Shown here in pieces: positions 3,761 through 64,000 of a stretch of DNA of 64,000 nt. This stretch comes from Thainema sp. (GTDB lineage Bacteria; Cyanobacteriota; Cyanobacteriia; Phormidesmidales; Phormidesmidaceae). Positions within the stretch are counted from its first letter, which is position 1, and the number at the start of each line of letters is the position of its first letter. The stretch lies in NCBI GenBank assembly GCA_052168235.1, contig JBQLZK010000036.1:11498-75497 (forward strand), read 5' to 3'. A program made the translations under genes and the position numbers. Under the pieces are notes generated by a model. That model did no database searches, was not told the DNA's origin, and was given only the letters and a program-made list of their open reading frames with translations.

Positions 3761-4002
3761 GGGAGTGGGTGAGGGGTAGATATGATGGCTCTTTTCCCTC
3801 TTTCCATCCCGCCACCGCACATCAGGATAAGCGACTTAATTTACCGAAAAACACGGAGAAAACTCAGCAACAAAGCGCAATAAAACTTGCTAAGCATCTC
3901 AAGTCTGCGTATGAGAATCCAGGAAATAGTCCCACCTTTATTAGCGCAAAACGCAGGGTGGTTTCGTTTAGACAGAGAATAATTTAGAACGATAAACGTT
4001 GC

Positions 4003-4578: not shown

Positions 4579-5046
4579 TTACTTCATCGAACGTCGCGGA
4601 CTTGTGGCTCGAATGATCCAGTAGCTGATTGATAGAGCAAAAATCGCGACCGCAAGGCCAATGATTTTGGTTCCAGGCGTATTGTCAAAGTCCAGCACAA
4701 TAATTTTTCGCGCCACGGCAATCAGTGAAGTTGCCACTACTAACTCCACATGAATGGAATGATCACGCAGATAGGCCGTGACATTTTCGAGAATTTCCAG
4801 CGCAATCAGGATATTGAGAAACAGCCCAAAAATAGTGATCAAATCAACCGAAAATTGTCCATAGGGTACAACTAACAGCTCTTTCCCTAGAAAAACTATT
4901 AAGTTGATTACCGCCCCGATCAACACCAATACCATCGCAATCGAGAGGATCTTGGAAACAATTACCTCTACAGTTTGCACCAGGCTTAAAAACGTCTGAT
5001 TGCGGGTTGCTCGACGGAAATATCGATAGGGAAGTCGCCATTTCAT
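4579..5046 (-). CDS. PsiE-family membrane protein
   Basis: Four TM helices, LIALEILENV...SLIAVARKIIVLD signature. Confidence 0.8.
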   Translation of the reverse strand: MKWRLPYRYFRRATRNQTFLSLVQTVEVIVSKILSIAMVLVLIGAVINLIVFLGKELLVVPYGQFSVDLITIFGLFLNILIALEILENVTAYLRDHSIHVELVVATSLIAVARKIIVLDFDNTPGTKIIGLAVAIFALSISYWIIRATSPRRSMK

Positions 5047-31875: not shown

Positions 31876-32045
31876 CAAGCAATGCAGAATGCGTTGTCAA
31901 ACTGCTTCATTAAACTTAACTATTGAATTCATCGTCTTGAGATGAAACGAAGGGTTTAACTGCTAAATCTTGATGGCAGTAGTCATATTGGCCAGGACGT
32001 TGGGAGACAATAAAAACGTTCTAGCGTTTTAACGTCTGAACGTTA

Positions 32046-33008
32046 TAGCCGTAGCCATTCTCATTAGGACGCCGCTTGCTTGAGAACCGCTTCCATTGCC
32101 TGGCGTAAACTGGTTGAGGAGGGGAGACGCTTTCGAATGCGGCTTTTTAACCAAGCCCAACACTTCTCAATGCGATTGAGGTCAGGAGAATAAGGGGGAA
32201 GATAAACCAGGTGAGAGTTGGCGGCCTCAATCAGTTCGGCGATCCGTCCGCCTTTGTGAAAGGTGGCATTATCCACAATCACCCAGTCCCCTGGCTGCAA
32301 GGTCGGAATTAAGCAAGTTTCAAGCCAGGTCTCAAAGACCACTCGATTACAAGTTCCTTCAATGGTAAACGGAGCAATCAGCTCAGTGCCTCGATAGCCC
32401 GCGATCATATTGACTCGCCCGTGGCGTTGGCCAGATTTGAGGTCGTAAACTCGTTCACCGATAGGGGCATATCCATAGCCGTAGTCGTCGCGCTCATCCA
32501 TGCCCGATTCATCGACATAGACTCAATGAGTCGCCTTTGGATCGCCGAGTTGAGCTTGAAACTCAGCCCGTTTCCCCTCGTCTCGTTGGCAGTAGCCATA
32601 GGTCTTTTTTTTCGCGTAAAGCCAATCTTTTGCAATGCCCGAGACATCGTTCGTTGGCTGATGGGGTCGGGCCACAAGGCGGCCATCTCCGCTTGCGTTT
32701 TGTCTTGATGCTGCTTGACAAAGCTGCGAAAGGCATCCCAGTCTTTGATTTTGGCTCTTGGATTGGCAGTTGTCCTGACGTTGGCTTTGAGATGCCCTAG
32801 TTCAGCCTTTTGCCGATACCAGCGGTTTATTGTATTGCGGCTGATGCCAAATCCTTCACTCACCTCACTTTTCTTGAGGCCGTTTAACTCAATCGCGTCG
32901 ATCACTTTTTGCCGAAAATCTTCGCTGTAGGGTTGAGCCATCCAATTCCAAGCGCAAAATACTACCTCTTAACCCTAGCTTATGTCCTAACCTAAGTGGC
33001 TACAGCTA
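32046..33008 (-). mobile_element. IS630-family insertion sequence
   Basis: Imperfect 25-bp TIRs (tagccgtagccattctcattaggac vs tagctgtagccacttaggttaggac), TA duplications at 32044-45 and 33009-10. Confidence 0.9.
32064..32941 (-). pseudogene. IS630 transposase: A8 frameshift plus in-frame nonsense codon
   Basis: HTH ORF joins the DDE frame (DES, DNATFHK, YSPDLNRIEKCW) at A8 (32605-32612); TGA at 32523-25 lies before the first catalytic Asp. Confidence 0.8.
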
Positions 33009-60249: not shown

Positions 60250-61759
60250 TCGCCTCAAACAATCATGGGTGCAACCGCTGGATCGAATCGCGATCGCAAT
60301 TATGGCTGTTCTCATCGTCGTAATCGGGATTGTGCTAATCAGTGGTGAGCATTCCACCCCCCGCATCCGGCAGTTTAGCTGGGACGGCCAGCGCATCGGC
60401 GCGGAGGATACGGCCTTTATCCTGACGTTCAACCGCCCCATGGATCGGCAAAGCGTCGAGTCTAACCTCCAAATTGAGCCGGAACTGCCGGGTAAATTTA
60501 GCTGGGCAGGTCGCCGCATGGCCTATACGCTGGAAAATCCTGCTCCCTACGGTGAAACTTTTCAGCTTACTCTCACTAACGCCACCGATCGCTACAGTGA
60601 GACCCAAGCCGATCGACCGGAAATTGAACCGTTTCAAACCACATTTCAAAGTCGCGATCGCGCATTTGCATTTATCGGCACCGAAGGCAGCGAAGCTGGA
60701 CGACTGGTACTGTACAACCTGACGCAAAAGAGCAGCCATCTTTTGACACCGGAAAACCTGTCGGTTTTAGATTTTGAAGCCTATCCGGCAGGCGATCGCA
60801 TTTTATTCTCCGCTGTGGATAAATCCACTGGTGATAACAGCATTCTCAGCCAGGAACTTTATACCGTCACCACTGGCCTAAATGCTGAATCCTCACAATC
60901 TGGTTGGCAGTGGCTGCCCTGGCGCAAGTCCAACACAGCGACACAGCTCAAATCGGGCAGCATTGAAAAAATCCTCGACAACCAGCAGTATCAAAACTTG
61001 AAGTTTGACCTATCCCCGAATGGTGAAACCATTGTGGTGCAGCGGGTCAATCAGAATGACCCAGCTGATTTTGGCCCCTGGATCATCCGTCAGGGTGAGC
61101 AGCCTCAGCCTATTGAAACCGATCCCGGTGGCGATTTCCTGATTACGCCGGATAGCACCGCACTGGTGCTAGCTCAGGGAGAAGGGCTGGCTATCCTGCC
61201 CCTCCAGCCGGAAACCGAACCGCTAGATTTCTTGCCTCAGTTCGGGATGGTGCTCAACTTTGCCCGCGACGGTTCGGCAGCAGCAATGGTGAAATTCAAC
61301 ACCGACTATACGCGATCGCTGTTTGTCGTGACCAACCAAGGCGAAGAAATCGAGCTGTTGCGCACGGAAGGCTCTGTTCTCGATGCTCAGTTTTCGCCAG
61401 ATAATCAGACCCTTTACTGTGTTCTTACCACGCTGCTGCCGGGAGACGAGTATGTGGAGCAGCCATTTTTAACCGCAATTGATATGGAATCAACAGAACG
61501 AACAGATTTAGTGTTGCTGCCAAAACAGCAGTCGGTGCAAATGAGCGTGGCCCCCGATGGCTTAGGACTTTTATTTGATCAGTCGGTCGCGTCTAATAAT
61601 GCAACCAATGAGGCTTTACCGCAAACGGAAGATGGCCGCGTAATCACGGCCAGTCAGCTTTGGTTTCTCCCTCTGCTGCAAGACGAAAATGGTCAATTGA
61701 TTAACGCCGATCCTGAAGCGCTATCACTGACTGGCGTCTATCCCCGATGGCTACCGTAA
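60239..61759 (+). CDS. Membrane-anchored Ig-like / beta-propeller protein
   Basis: N-terminal TM, LTFNRPMD Ig-like motif, SPNG/SPD TolB-like repeats; overlaps the upstream gene. Confidence 0.7.
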   Translation: MTTNRLKQSWVQPLDRIAIAIMAVLIVVIGIVLISGEHSTPRIRQFSWDGQRIGAEDTAFILTFNRPMDRQSVESNLQIEPELPGKFSWAGRRMAYTLENPAPYGETFQLTLTNATDRYSETQADRPEIEPFQTTFQSRDRAFAFIGTEGSEAGRLVLYNLTQKSSHLLTPENLSVLDFEAYPAGDRILFSAVDKSTGDNSILSQELYTVTTGLNAESSQSGWQWLPWRKSNTATQLKSGSIEKILDNQQYQNLKFDLSPNGETIVVQRVNQNDPADFGPWIIRQGEQPQPIETDPGGDFLITPDSTALVLAQGEGLAILPLQPETEPLDFLPQFGMVLNFARDGSAAAMVKFNTDYTRSLFVVTNQGEEIELLRTEGSVLDAQFSPDNQTLYCVLTTLLPGDEYVEQPFLTAIDMESTERTDLVLLPKQQSVQMSVAPDGLGLLFDQSVASNNATNEALPQTEDGRVITASQLWFLPLLQDENGQLINADPEALSLTGVYPRWLP

Positions 61760-61829
61760 AGCTCTCTCACAATAGCAATTGTTGAGCGGTTTAAGGCATT
61801 CCTAAACCTTGATCTTGAATTGCTGGACT

Positions 61830-63335
61830 TTACAGGGTACGAACTTCTTCCTGGAGCTTGAGAAGTTGTGCTTCTGCTTCCAGCGGCTTATAAGTCAGTC
61901 TGGACACGACTACAAACGCAATTAACCCGACCAAAGGGCTAATTAACGTGGGAAATCCATCAAAGTCGGCGGTCAAAAACCCATTTGGGAGATAGAACAG
62001 CGTGTTCTCAATGCCAAACATGGTTGGCATTAGAGCAAAGAAAATCAGCCGGGTGATAGAACCCGCAATGATACAAGCCAATGCGCCCTGCCGAGTCGAT
62101 TTCGTCCAGAATAAACCGCCCAGCAGTGGCACCACCAGTCCAGCAAATCCTAGATCAAATCCCAGCAGAAGCAGCACGCCCGTTTGAGGTACCCGCAGCC
62201 CCAGAAACACACCCAGTACAGTGATCACAATCGCCATGAGTCGAGTGATTAGCAGTAAGCGATCACCACCGTTAGCGTGGCCCACGCCTACTCCATGTCG
62301 AATCCCCAAAACATTGTGGGCCAAAACTGAAGATGTACCTAAAATGGCTCCATCTGCCGTAGAAAGCGAAGCCGACAAAATTGCGGCCAGCACTAGCAAA
62401 CCTAGTACGGGCGGAACGACATTCAGCAGCAGTGTAAATAGCACTGGGCCATCACCCACCACCCCAACTTGTTCAAAAATACTGTTGGCTGACAGCGCAA
62501 TGACGGAAAACGGTAGCCCCACAATCAACGTGCCAGCAGAAGCGACATAGCAGGCTTTCTGAGCTGTTTCTGGGCTATCGGCCGCAAAAATACGAGCCAT
62601 GAAATCAATTGCCACCATGTTGCCTAATCCTAGTGCTAAGATGCTGGCCCAGTTAATTGCCGCTCCTGAACTGACGGATGTCAACTGCTCTAGGGCGAAA
62701 GGACCAGTGCCAGGAGCAATGTTGAGCCCAAAGTTAACTAGAACATAAGTCAGCAGTCCTAACGCACCAACTAAAGCAATCAAGATTTGAATTGCGTCAG
62801 TGTATGCTACAGCAAACAGACCACCAGACACAGTGTAAGCAAAAACAAGAGTTGCCAGTAATAGAATGCCACCAACGTAGCTAGTGCCCAAAAAGGTTTG
62901 GAACATATAGCCCCCGGCAACCAGGTTACCTGCCAGTAAAAATGAAAAGCTGACCGACATAATGCAAGCAGCAATCAACTCGACTCTGCGACCGTATTTG
63001 ACTCGATAAAAATCAGGAATTGTAATCAGCCCCATGCGATTCATGGGTTTAGCTAAGAATGTGCCAGTCAAAAACAAACAGAGCGATAAACCAATTGGTA
63101 GAGCAGCTCCAGCCCAAAAGCCAAATTCTGAAGACAAATCGGTATTTCCTAGGGTGGCATTAGAGTCTACCGATTGCGCCATTAAAGTAGCCGCAGCTAA
63201 TGGCAATGCGAGCCCTCGTCCAGCGACTAAAAAATTGACGCTATCTCCTTTTATTTGTTTAGAAGCCCAGACACCGATACCTAACGTTCCCAACAGAAAA
63301 GTAATAATTCCATAGGAAAAAGCTGAATGTTCCAT
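61830..63335 (-). CDS. Sodium:solute symporter family transporter
   Basis: FLVAGR, TIPDFY..KYG, YT.SGG..AVAYTD.IQ, SASLSTAD. Confidence 0.9.
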   Translation of the reverse strand: MEHSAFSYGIITFLLGTLGIGVWASKQIKGDSVNFLVAGRGLALPLAAATLMAQSVDSNATLGNTDLSSEFGFWAGAALPIGLSLCLFLTGTFLAKPMNRMGLITIPDFYRVKYGRRVELIAACIMSVSFSFLLAGNLVAGGYMFQTFLGTSYVGGILLLATLVFAYTVSGGLFAVAYTDAIQILIALVGALGLLTYVLVNFGLNIAPGTGPFALEQLTSVSSGAAINWASILALGLGNMVAIDFMARIFAADSPETAQKACYVASAGTLIVGLPFSVIALSANSIFEQVGVVGDGPVLFTLLLNVVPPVLGLLVLAAILSASLSTADGAILGTSSVLAHNVLGIRHGVGVGHANGGDRLLLITRLMAIVITVLGVFLGLRVPQTGVLLLLGFDLGFAGLVVPLLGGLFWTKSTRQGALACIIAGSITRLIFFALMPTMFGIENTLFYLPNGFLTADFDGFPTLISPLVGLIAFVVVSRLTYKPLEAEAQLLKLQEEVRTL

Positions 63336-63480
63336 TGGTCAATTTCCAAATTCAACATTGCAATTTCGCACCAGTCATGAAGTATCAGCAAGCAATAGGG
63401 CCAAAATCCAAAAAACGAAAAGTTCCTACCAGGGCTATTTCTCGGTTTTTAGTTTGAGTTTATTTATGCCAATTTACTTA

Positions 63481-63544
63481 CAACAAAAGCCCAGGAAAAA
63501 GCTGATGACCTAACAAAGGCCAGCATGCTTCTCCCGGGCTTTTA
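63481..63544 (-). terminator. Riboswitch expression-platform terminator
   Basis: AAAAGCCCGGGAGAAGC pairs with GCTTTTTCCTGGGCTTTT and overlaps the aptamer 3' end. Confidence 0.7.
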
Positions 63545-63642
63545 TCCCTCCGTGAACCAGCTTGGCACTGCTATACCTGGGCTGGCTGCATCTCTTGGAC
63601 CAAACACCTAATTAGCTTTTAGGCTGGAACCCTAGATGCAAA
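63528..63642 (-). ncRNA. Guanidine-I (ykkC-yxkD) riboswitch
   Basis: TGCATCTAGGGTTCC...TGGTCCAAGAGATGCA...ACGGAGGGATAAAAGCCCGGGAG. Confidence 0.88.
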
Positions 63643-64000
63643 ATCTTAGACTGGTTGTTTTGAAGTAACTAAATAGAACTGGCGAAAGCTGTAGAAAAAT
63701 CGCTGTTTTTCTTTAATTACTTCCCATACATTTCTATCAGCAGGCAATGGATGAATAAGTGTCTCTTGCTACGTATTAATTGTAGAAATGTCTGAAATAT
63801 CAATATCTTCTGACTTTTCAATAAAAATCAGCACTAAAAAAATCAGTACTGATATTAATATGAAATCCGGCTAAAAATCTATAACCTATCAATGTGAAAT
63901 GCTTGCCTGGTAAGTATTTCACATTGACGTTAGCAAGTGGTGCCTGGCGTTGCTGAATAGGTAGATGATTGTCTAAGGTGATCAGAGAAGACGCTTTGAG

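Follow-up and report, generated by a model that had tools for sequence, protein, structure and literature searches.

A Guanidine-I riboswitch ahead of a sodium:solute symporter gene in Thainema sp. points to a candidate sodium-coupled importer of guanidinium

A stretch of 64,000 nucleotides (nt) from the cyanobacterium Thainema sp. (assembly GCA_052168235.1, contig JBQLZK010000036.1, positions 11,498 to 75,497 of the forward strand; hereafter the window) carries a Guanidine-I riboswitch in the leader of a lone gene for a carrier of the sodium:solute symporter (SSS) family, designated P0001. The riboswitch probably acts as a transcriptional ON switch of a single-gene operon, and the carrier is probably a Na+-coupled importer of guanidinium that supplies GdmH, the nickel-dependent guanidine hydrolase. 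The sequence evidence set out below makes it a strong candidate as a guanidine uptake protein of a new kind. With somewhat less assurance, the gene appears to found an unrecognised family of secondary guanidinium:Na+ symporters that would have arisen from CHT-like carriers, losing their aromatic cage and gaining an aspartate (D57) at the chloride site of CHT1; this family would be spread over Cyanobacteria and high-GC bacteria as part of the GdmH regulon, and could account for the ATP-independent uptake route inferred in Synechocystis.

The aptamer is the sole Rfam match in the window at gathering thresholds (cmscan; RF00442), scoring 83.2 bits against a cut-off of 63 (E 2.4e-13) and covering model positions 1-107 of 107 without truncation (Table 1). 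This bears out a ykkC-type aptamer that had been noticed in an earlier, sequence-only reading of the same DNA. A permissive Rfam scan (E <= 10) of 63300-63800 yielded, beyond Guanidine-I, just one spurious miRNA match. Upstream of the aptamer, just 354 nt are present, because the window stops at the contig end. The helices P1, P1a, P1b, P2 and P3 are supported by covariation across 43 orthologous aptamers, with 94.2% of cells paired and changes on both sides in 16 of 25 pairs, the pairs of P3 being invariant. None of 500 shuffles matched the covariation score of this alignment, and sliding the pairing partners lowered pairing to below 47%.

The aptamer belongs to the guanidine-binding subtype by its sequence. 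Guanidine-I RNAs share a conserved adenine in the P1 bulge, numbered A46 by Reiss and A55 in the Burkholderia construct, whereas all subtype-2 ykkC RNAs, which bind guanosine tetraphosphate (ppGpp), phosphoribosyl pyrophosphate (PRPP) and others, are reported to have a pyrimidine there, and the gene contexts of ykkC RNAs are separable by this position alone (PMC6031431, PMC8457001). The four-base P1 bulge of the window reads AAGA against the Rfam consensus GAGA; the AGAG formed by its final three bases and the closing G does not vary in 43/43 aligned aptamers, and the P3/S-turn core ACGGAGGGAUAAAAGCCCGGGAGA equals the consensus. The published numbering presumably maps onto this bulge and, since no pyrimidine occurs in it, the signature of subtype 2 is missing whatever the placement; the subtype check that the sequence-only reading had called for thus came out as guanidine subtype 1. 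A subtype-2 (ppGpp/PRPP) reading was discarded on the bulge sequence and gene context. More broadly, it is exceedingly unlikely that the aptamer is a ykkC variant for some other ligand (ppGpp, PRPP or a nucleotide) and the gene lies outside guanidine control. The ykkC subtypes do share a fold and differ at few pocket bases (PMC6031431, PMC6003355), and the first base of the window bulge is A in place of the consensus G, but this base is G or A among the orthologs, no P0-type conserved extension was noted, and the genes that accompany the carrier include guanidine hydrolase genes, one of which is itself preceded by a Guanidine-III switch in three loci.

The expression platform suits ligand-dependent activation of the gene, that is, a transcriptional ON switch. 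On the minus-strand leader, AAAAGCCCGGGAGAAGC, comprising the 3' strand of P3 and its tail, is complementary to GCUUUUUCCUGGGCUUUU, which is followed by GUUGU. Folding of 63548..63470 gave a hairpin of -39 kcal/mol (z-score -6.41) that none of 200 shuffles equalled in stability, and its stem recurs when the whole leader is folded to minimum energy. Aptamer and terminator share the 3' strand of P3, which forms the 5' arm of the terminator, and the two structures are therefore mutually exclusive, in agreement with the overlapping terminator and ON-switch layout described earlier. The same terminator design is predicted, with compensating changes, in those orthologs with their own riboswitch that were folded. 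From the aptamer end (63529) to the ATG (63335) the distance is 193 nt, as against about 190 nt estimated earlier; most orthologs have 81-123 nt. The terminator-to-ATG spacer exceeds that of most orthologs by some 100 nt and also contains, on the minus strand, a second weak hairpin with a T-run after it (around 63440-63405).

The linkage between switch and carrier is conserved in related genomes. A covariance model (CM R1) built from the 43 orthologous aptamers was run over 80 genome loci (L003-L082; the best 80 of 270 relatives, with one genome scanned per species) and combined with clustering of open reading frames (ORFs) and Pfam assignments. A same-strand Guanidine-I match stands no more than 450 nt upstream of the SSS gene in 56/80 loci (hereafter own-switch loci), seven of which also have a divergent arginase-family gene (GdmH-like, ~397 aa) with a second switch of its own. 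Nine of the 80 show the order GdmH-like, HypA-like, CobW/HypB-like, SSS, with a switch ahead of gdmH in seven and the end of the contig at that place in two. Three loci have too little upstream sequence, which leaves 77 assessable, and in 65 of these the SSS gene is tied to guanidine sensing or to a gdmH operon. Of the 12 loci that have no adjacent switch, L080 has one 1.1 kb upstream of the SSS gene, and L078 has gdmH and a switch a few genes away. In one locus of the set (L064), the carrier gene is placed between a hypB-like gene and the genes of an NMT1-type ATP-binding cassette (ABC) system.

Comparable arrangements recur in metagenomes, chiefly on contigs of high G+C content. A HMMER search over 1.84 billion cluster representatives retrieved just 133 at E <= 1e-30, and the named relatives at 44-51% identity were from Mycobacterium sp., Rhodococcus sp., an Altiarchaeales archaeon and Sedimentisphaerales. 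The metagenome set comprised 80 loci out of at least 516 confirmed relatives, with a Rhodococcus protein first in the query alignment. CM R1 matched 34 places in 33 of the 80 loci, and 26 of these 33 are contigs with a G+C content of 64-78%, for which Rhodococcus and Mycobacterium are the named relatives. The switch precedes the carrier gene by 23-51 nt on 18 of the 26 high-GC contigs, 16 of which have a divergent GdmH homolog 53-62% identical to the GdmH of the window genome; the other eight show the order switch, gdmH (63-70% identical), carrier. Ten further metagenome loci have gdmH, hypA-like or hypB-like genes adjacent to the carrier gene, nine of them with no switch detected, and in L135 the switch is 703 nt upstream of the carrier gene. 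Guanidine linkage was found in 42 of 70 assessable metagenome loci, 10 of the 80 not being assessable. Among 12 loci tested against Rfam, RF00442 exceeded its gathering threshold in 11 (the exception being L095), and Guanidine-III (RF01763) stood directly ahead of the divergent gdmH in L097, L114 and L116, such that two structurally unrelated guanidine sensors, one on gdmH and one on the SSS gene, flank a single gene pair (Table 1). The facing switches share an intergenic region of ~300 nt on these high-GC contigs.

Phylogenetic analysis places all of these carriers together. In a tree of 177 sequences (FastTree, LG+gamma), rooted on ten representatives of 25-31% identity and leaving out genome loci with fewer than 400 readable amino acids (L039, L046, L055, L058), all loci fall in one clade of 160 (support 0.944). 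This clade contains members of both G+C groups, and 106 of its members are linked to guanidine (77 with their own switch, 19 in gdmH operons and 10 adjacent to gdmH or gha genes). The subclade that holds the window carrier has 62 members (support 1.0), 58 of them with their own switch.

The region upstream of the switch carries a putative nitrogen-control element (Table 1). Boxes of the GTA-N8-TAC type are recognised by NtcA, the nitrogen regulator of cyanobacteria, and NtcA may bind here. A survey of the 200 nt preceding the aptamer covered the window and 53 own-switch loci (L036, L052 and L054 were left out because the P1 pattern was unmatched). Of these 54 cases, 35 have a perfect GTA-N8-TAC, mostly at -114 to -171 (mean 3.1 and maximum 10 in shuffles), and 47 have a box with at most one mismatch at -185..-100 (mean 22 and maximum 31 in shuffles). 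Orthologs show GTA-N8-TAC or GTA-N8-CAC at the offset of the window box, and a variant, GTATCA-N4-GACAC at about -125, is common to the nearest relatives of the window. Both gdmH and gimABC are reported to be under NtcA control in Synechocystis (PMC12704784). Given an NtcA-type promoter in front of a riboswitch, expression of the carrier gene would probably need both nitrogen shortage and guanidine.

P0001 matches Pfam SSF (PF00474; Transporter Classification 2.A.21) end to end (E 9.7e-32, 110.8 bits against 22.8, profile 1-406 of 406), so that the SSS gene that had been recognised behind the aptamer stands. Its downstream neighbour is convergent, as are the surrounding genes for an ArsP_1 permease, a DUF1980 protein and an unassigned protein of 506 aa; no guanidine-related neighbour of the carrier gene is visible within the window. 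As the downstream gene is convergent and the neighbours are unlinked to guanidine, the carrier gene is taken to be a single-gene unit. A word-indexed protein search returned more than 1200 homologs, the best 120 being 71-89% identical and, wherever they bear a source name, all cyanobacterial. The NCBIfam equivalogs all score far under their cut-offs (PutP 113.7 vs 515.5; PanF 73.8 vs 328; ActP 29.1 vs 1099), and assignment as a proline, pantothenate or acetate symporter was rejected; given the low PutP score, the source name 'sodium/proline symporter' attached to homologs is unsupported for P0001. SSS paralogs were sought in the genome by tblastn as an outgroup, and only the P0001 gene itself was found.

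Choline carriers (CHT1/SLC5A7; E 4.5e-21) are the nearest solved structures to P0001 by sequence, followed by vSGLT. An AlphaFold2 model built from a 42-sequence alignment (mean predicted local distance difference test, pLDDT, 91.1; predicted template modelling score, pTM, 0.90) has predicted helix breaks at residues 56-57 and 242, corresponding to the breaks in transmembrane helices (TM) 1 and 6 of the LeuT fold. Foldseek ranked CHT1 first (E 4.5e-17, TM score 0.80), then SGLT2, SiaT and NIS, and the top 40 matches are all SSS carriers. Residues of human CHT1 (PMC11589582) were mapped onto P0001 through a HMMER alignment. The Na2 residues A60, V63, A343, S346 and S347 correspond to A53, V56, A322, S325 and T326 of P0001, and within the clade of 160, 156 members retain S325 and all 160 retain T326; conservation of this site suggests that the carrier is coupled to sodium. 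The Na3 residues D188, D349 and S350 align with D180, D328 and G329. Of these positions, 180 varies within the clade (Asp in 104/160, Ala in 51/160), as does 328 (Asp in 104, Asn in 32, Ser in 20), and some members of the family may bind two sodium ions, others just one.

The substrate site of CHT1 appears to be remodelled in P0001. The cage residues W62, Y67, Y91, W141, W254 and W406 align with S55, A60, L83, L133, A242 and L389, and identification as a choline carrier was rejected because none of the six aromatics is kept. The chloride loop VGGGY is replaced by VDSNA. Eleven residues are invariant in the clade of 160 (D57, N59, A60, T61, W74, L133, N228, A242, D244, F393 and D394). Position 57, which falls within the predicted break of TM1, is Asp in 160/160 members and Gly in 10/10 distant representatives; the latter also have W55 and W133 in 10/10, and with these residues kept they look choline-type. 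Loss of the aromatic cage together with the gain of a carboxylate at the TM1 break makes the clade look derived from organic-cation carriers, and the pocket would hold a small cation hydrogen-bonded to carboxylates, as would suit guanidinium.

Transport of urea or another neutral nitrogen compound, for example to recapture urea made by GdmH, with guanidine serving as a signal only, is distinctly unlikely. Such a role would have precedent in the urea carrier DUR3, an SSS member that does appear among the fold matches, and urea, besides being the product of GdmH, is shaped much like guanidine. In fold, however, DUR3 matches far less well than CHT1 (rank 32, TMq 0.67), and it did not appear at E <= 0.001 when solved structures were searched by sequence, while the clade-invariant D57 in the TM1 break would favour a cationic substrate. 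Moreover, cyanobacteria usually import urea by a dedicated ABC system.

The window genome encodes candidates for guanidine assimilation outside the window, as had been suggested as a point to look for. On another contig, a sub-threshold RF00442 match (37.6 bits), the second in the genome, lies upstream of an arginase-family gene, in a cluster with the order switch, gdmH (395 aa), HypA-like, CobW/HypB-like, NMT1-type binding protein, permease and ATPase, which is the gdmH-ghaAB-gimABC layout of Synechocystis; urease alpha is also encoded. The low score of the gdmH switch is due to a ~100-nt P1b insertion with a long perfect hairpin, which splits the aptamer; its true 5' part (GCUUCUAGGGUUCCGG) lies ~100 nt further upstream, beyond the insertion. 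A perfect GTA-N8-TAC box stands ahead of this switch (~L002 1802-1815). A gene for a Rieske/ring-hydroxylating oxygenase follows the gimC-like ATPase gene (L083 845-1975, minus strand; G000:C34 24844-25974), and its substrate might be a substituted guanidine. Co-occurrence extends beyond this genome: among 49 genomes with an own-switch SSS gene and no adjacent gdmH (ten switch-less loci being left out of the search), 43 encode a GdmH ortholog elsewhere at 83-92% identity.

Import of substituted guanidines (methylguanidine, guanidino acids or agmatine-like compounds), with guanidine freed inside the cell keeping the switch on, is unlikely but deserves consideration. The sequence-only reading had allowed for it in speaking of a 'guanidino compound', guanidine switches also head operons that free guanidine from methylguanidine (PMC12508155), and the Rieske oxygenase gene just described sits in the gdmH cluster. 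Against it, the recurrent partners of the carrier are GdmH, which acts on free guanidine, and nickel chaperones, no guanidine-releasing enzyme gene recurs beside the SSS gene among the 80 genome loci, and the replacement of the large aromatics of CHT1 by small or aliphatic residues and an Asp suggests a small substrate.

A role in relieving guanidine stress rather than in assimilation, whether by Gdx-like efflux or by transport of a protective solute, is very unlikely. The transporters described under guanidine riboswitch control are mostly exporters (PMC9574504), guanidine is reported to be toxic to Synechocystis above 5 mM (PMC12704784), and the window genome has just one borderline match to the SMR family, with no Guanidine-I match beside it. 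Yet uptake by SSS carriers is driven by the inward sodium gradient and P0001 retains the Na2 site, the operons with catabolic gdmH and the NtcA-type boxes follow the logic of nitrogen acquisition, and one copy of the switch-carrier unit, on plasmid pREB7 of Acaryochloris marina, comes after an ammonium transporter gene.

The preferred model, import of guanidinium itself as a nitrogen source, would operate as follows. Under nitrogen limitation, NtcA would start transcription ~100 nt ahead of the aptamer. As long as guanidine is absent, the P3 3' strand would pair into the terminator and the transcript would end near 63480; intracellular guanidinium would instead bind the aptamer, hold P3 and block the terminator, allowing the carrier mRNA to be made. 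The carrier would then bring in more guanidinium by means of the sodium gradient, working alongside the ABC importer GimABC, and GdmH, encoded elsewhere in the genome, and urease would convert it to ammonia. Positive feedback of this kind is known for riboswitch-controlled ABC importers of guanidine in enterobacteria (PMC12186494). The linkage of switch and carrier, the co-occurrence with GdmH and the NtcA-type boxes all favour the Na+-coupled guanidine importer for nitrogen scavenging that was first suggested from sequence, and the remark made then that the transporter class is unusual for this role holds for the literature searched.

Several observations weigh against this interpretation. 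Among the assessable loci, 12 of 77 in genomes and 28 of 70 in metagenomes have neither a switch nor gdmH beside the SSS gene, and the family may therefore hold members with other control or other substrates. Three of the switch-less loci, L004, L016 and L039, belong to the closest group (85-86% identical); short tandem or inverted repeats occur upstream of their carrier genes (L004 5680-5991, L016 5868-5997, L039 2326-2900) in place of a riboswitch, which suggests secondary loss. The genome and metagenome sets are not fully independent, as at least two metagenome loci duplicate genome loci (L158 = L050, L128 = L066). Six of the 49 genomes, which are assemblies of unknown completeness, gave no GdmH match. 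The window genome already encodes a GimABC-like importer, so that a second importer is not strictly required, and import of a toxic compound with positive feedback requires GdmH as a counterbalance. The NtcA-type box of the window carries one mismatch, and a simple sigma-70 consensus scan of 61500-64000 found no promoter-like site. In the protein, D244 and R248 are conserved in distant SSS carriers too and D394 aligns with D411 of CHT1, leaving D57 as the sole clearly clade-specific residue, and the pocket assignments derive from alignments at 22-24% identity and the secondary structure of the model.

The proposed carrier has points in common with several described systems. Closest in function is GimABC (Sll1080-1082) of Synechocystis sp. 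PCC 6803, to which the same job of supplying guanidine to GdmH under nitrogen limitation is ascribed (PMC12704784). Both systems keep company with gdmH, hypA-like and hypB-like genes, and in some loci the SSS gene follows ghaB, the place that gimABC occupies in the window genome. GimABC is, however, ATP-driven and dependent on a binding protein, with nanomolar affinity established by isothermal titration calorimetry and mutants (PMC12704784), whereas P0001 is a candidate single-polypeptide secondary carrier, unrelated to it in sequence and fold; the window genome has both. Synechocystis mutants in gimA or gimB are reported to fail at 0.1 mM guanidine (PMC12704784). Nutrient uptake commonly combines a high-affinity ABC system with a secondary carrier. 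The Guanidine-I-gdmH-ghaA-ghaB unit of Synechocystis (PMC12704784, PMC8390497) has the same switch class, terminator-type ON logic and an NtcA-type promoter element, but the window switch governs a lone transporter gene and not a hydrolase operon.

Among transporters, CHT1/SLC5A7 and bacterial CHT are likewise Na+-coupled carriers of small organic cations, with a Na2 site common to P0001 (PMC11589582; bioRxiv 10.1101/2025.09.30.678764), but P0001 lacks their cage and has an invariant Asp in the former chloride loop; the ten distant bacterial representatives that retain the CHT1-like residues lie outside the guanidine-linked clade. Gdx/SugE proteins are also guanidine-riboswitch-controlled transporters of the guanidinium cation, but they are dimeric H+ antiporters of four TM helices that export it (PMC9574504), whereas the SSS carrier is predicted to be a symporter of LeuT fold with ~13 helices and is found with catabolic genes. 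DUR3 belongs to the same superfamily and has a small, planar, nitrogenous substrate close to guanidine in shape, but this substrate is neutral and the carrier is eukaryotic and proton-coupled (bioRxiv 10.1101/2025.05.20.653754).

The riboswitch class and the carrier superfamily are known already; new in the literature searched are their pairing and a guanidine role for an SSS carrier. No paper linking such a carrier to guanidine was found in that literature, supplements and the gene-association lists of two key papers being outside its coverage, and the word 'symporter' is absent from PMC12704784 and its preprint and from PMC12186494 and PMC12623156. Guanidine has been accepted as a natural nitrogen source just recently, and the uptake route described for it is an ABC system. 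The Synechocystis study inferred an additional uptake route that it left without identity (PMC12704784), which the SSS carrier, if the proposal is correct, could be. It would then represent a new transporter class for guanidine biology, present in two bacterial groups far apart from each other, and genes annotated generically as 'sodium:solute symporter' would gain a specific substrate that can be tested. It would offer a natural case of an organic-cation pocket rebuilt for a small planar cation. It would also provide a single-gene uptake module for guanidine-inducible expression and for engineered cyanobacteria that use or produce guanidine.

Table 1. Positions of the switch, its gene and related elements in the window, in the gdmH cluster of the same genome (L002) and in three metagenome loci (L097, L116, L114)
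Feature	Location	Strand	Basis
NtcA-type box with one mismatch (GTAGCAAGAGACAC, GTA-N8-CAC), putative nitrogen-control site	63759..63772	-	126 nt upstream of aptamer
Guanidine-I (ykkC subtype 1) riboswitch aptamer	63529..63646	-	RF00442, full model; CM R1, 106.8 bits
Intrinsic terminator hairpin with U-rich tail	63480..63546	-	5' arm is the P3 3' strand; fold energy
Terminator-to-start spacer	63336..63479	-	Sequence reading; Shine-Dalgarno-like TTTGGAAA shortly before ATG
SSS-family transporter gene (P0001, 501 aa), candidate Na+:guanidinium symporter, monocistronic	61830..63335	-	Pfam SSF
gdmH riboswitch	L002 ~1501-1736 = G000:C34 ~31990-32225	-	Sub-threshold RF00442 and sequence reading
Guanidine-III / Guanidine-I facing switches	L097 3693-3757 / 3880-3986	- / +	Rfam
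Guanidine-III / Guanidine-I facing switches	L116 1551-1619 / 1738-1847	- / +	Rfam
Guanidine-III / Guanidine-I facing switches	L114 4682-4747 / 4865-4973	- / +	Rfam

Some aptamers of the genome set depart from the usual form. That of L080 (4766-4921, plus strand) has the bulge AACA in place of GAGA or AAGA, with the conserved G altered; a repeated ORF (cluster 386) lies between it and the distant SSS gene, and the unit may be disrupted. Large insertions in P1b or P2 are also present in the aptamers of L034, L037 and L066.

Two further gene families recur around the carrier. A gene of the MFS family (~470 aa, cluster 6) adjoins the SSS gene in 11 loci, being downstream and convergent in L028, L031, L041, L044, L047, L048, L051, L053 and L056 and upstream on the same strand in L074 and L079, and a DUF981 gene (cluster 9) is divergent and upstream of the SSS gene in nine loci. 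The carrier gene is also present in Leptolyngbya sp. PCC 7376. In A. marina MBIC11017, the switch-SSS unit (L015/L164) is borne by plasmid pREB7 (44110-45612), which is typed as conjugative; it lies directly after the ammonium transporter gene and near an IS6-like transposase, and the public record of its carrier gives the generic name 'sodium:solute symporter family protein'. The chromosome of this strain (L079) has a second carrier copy, 71% identical and switch-less, with the MFS gene ahead of it.

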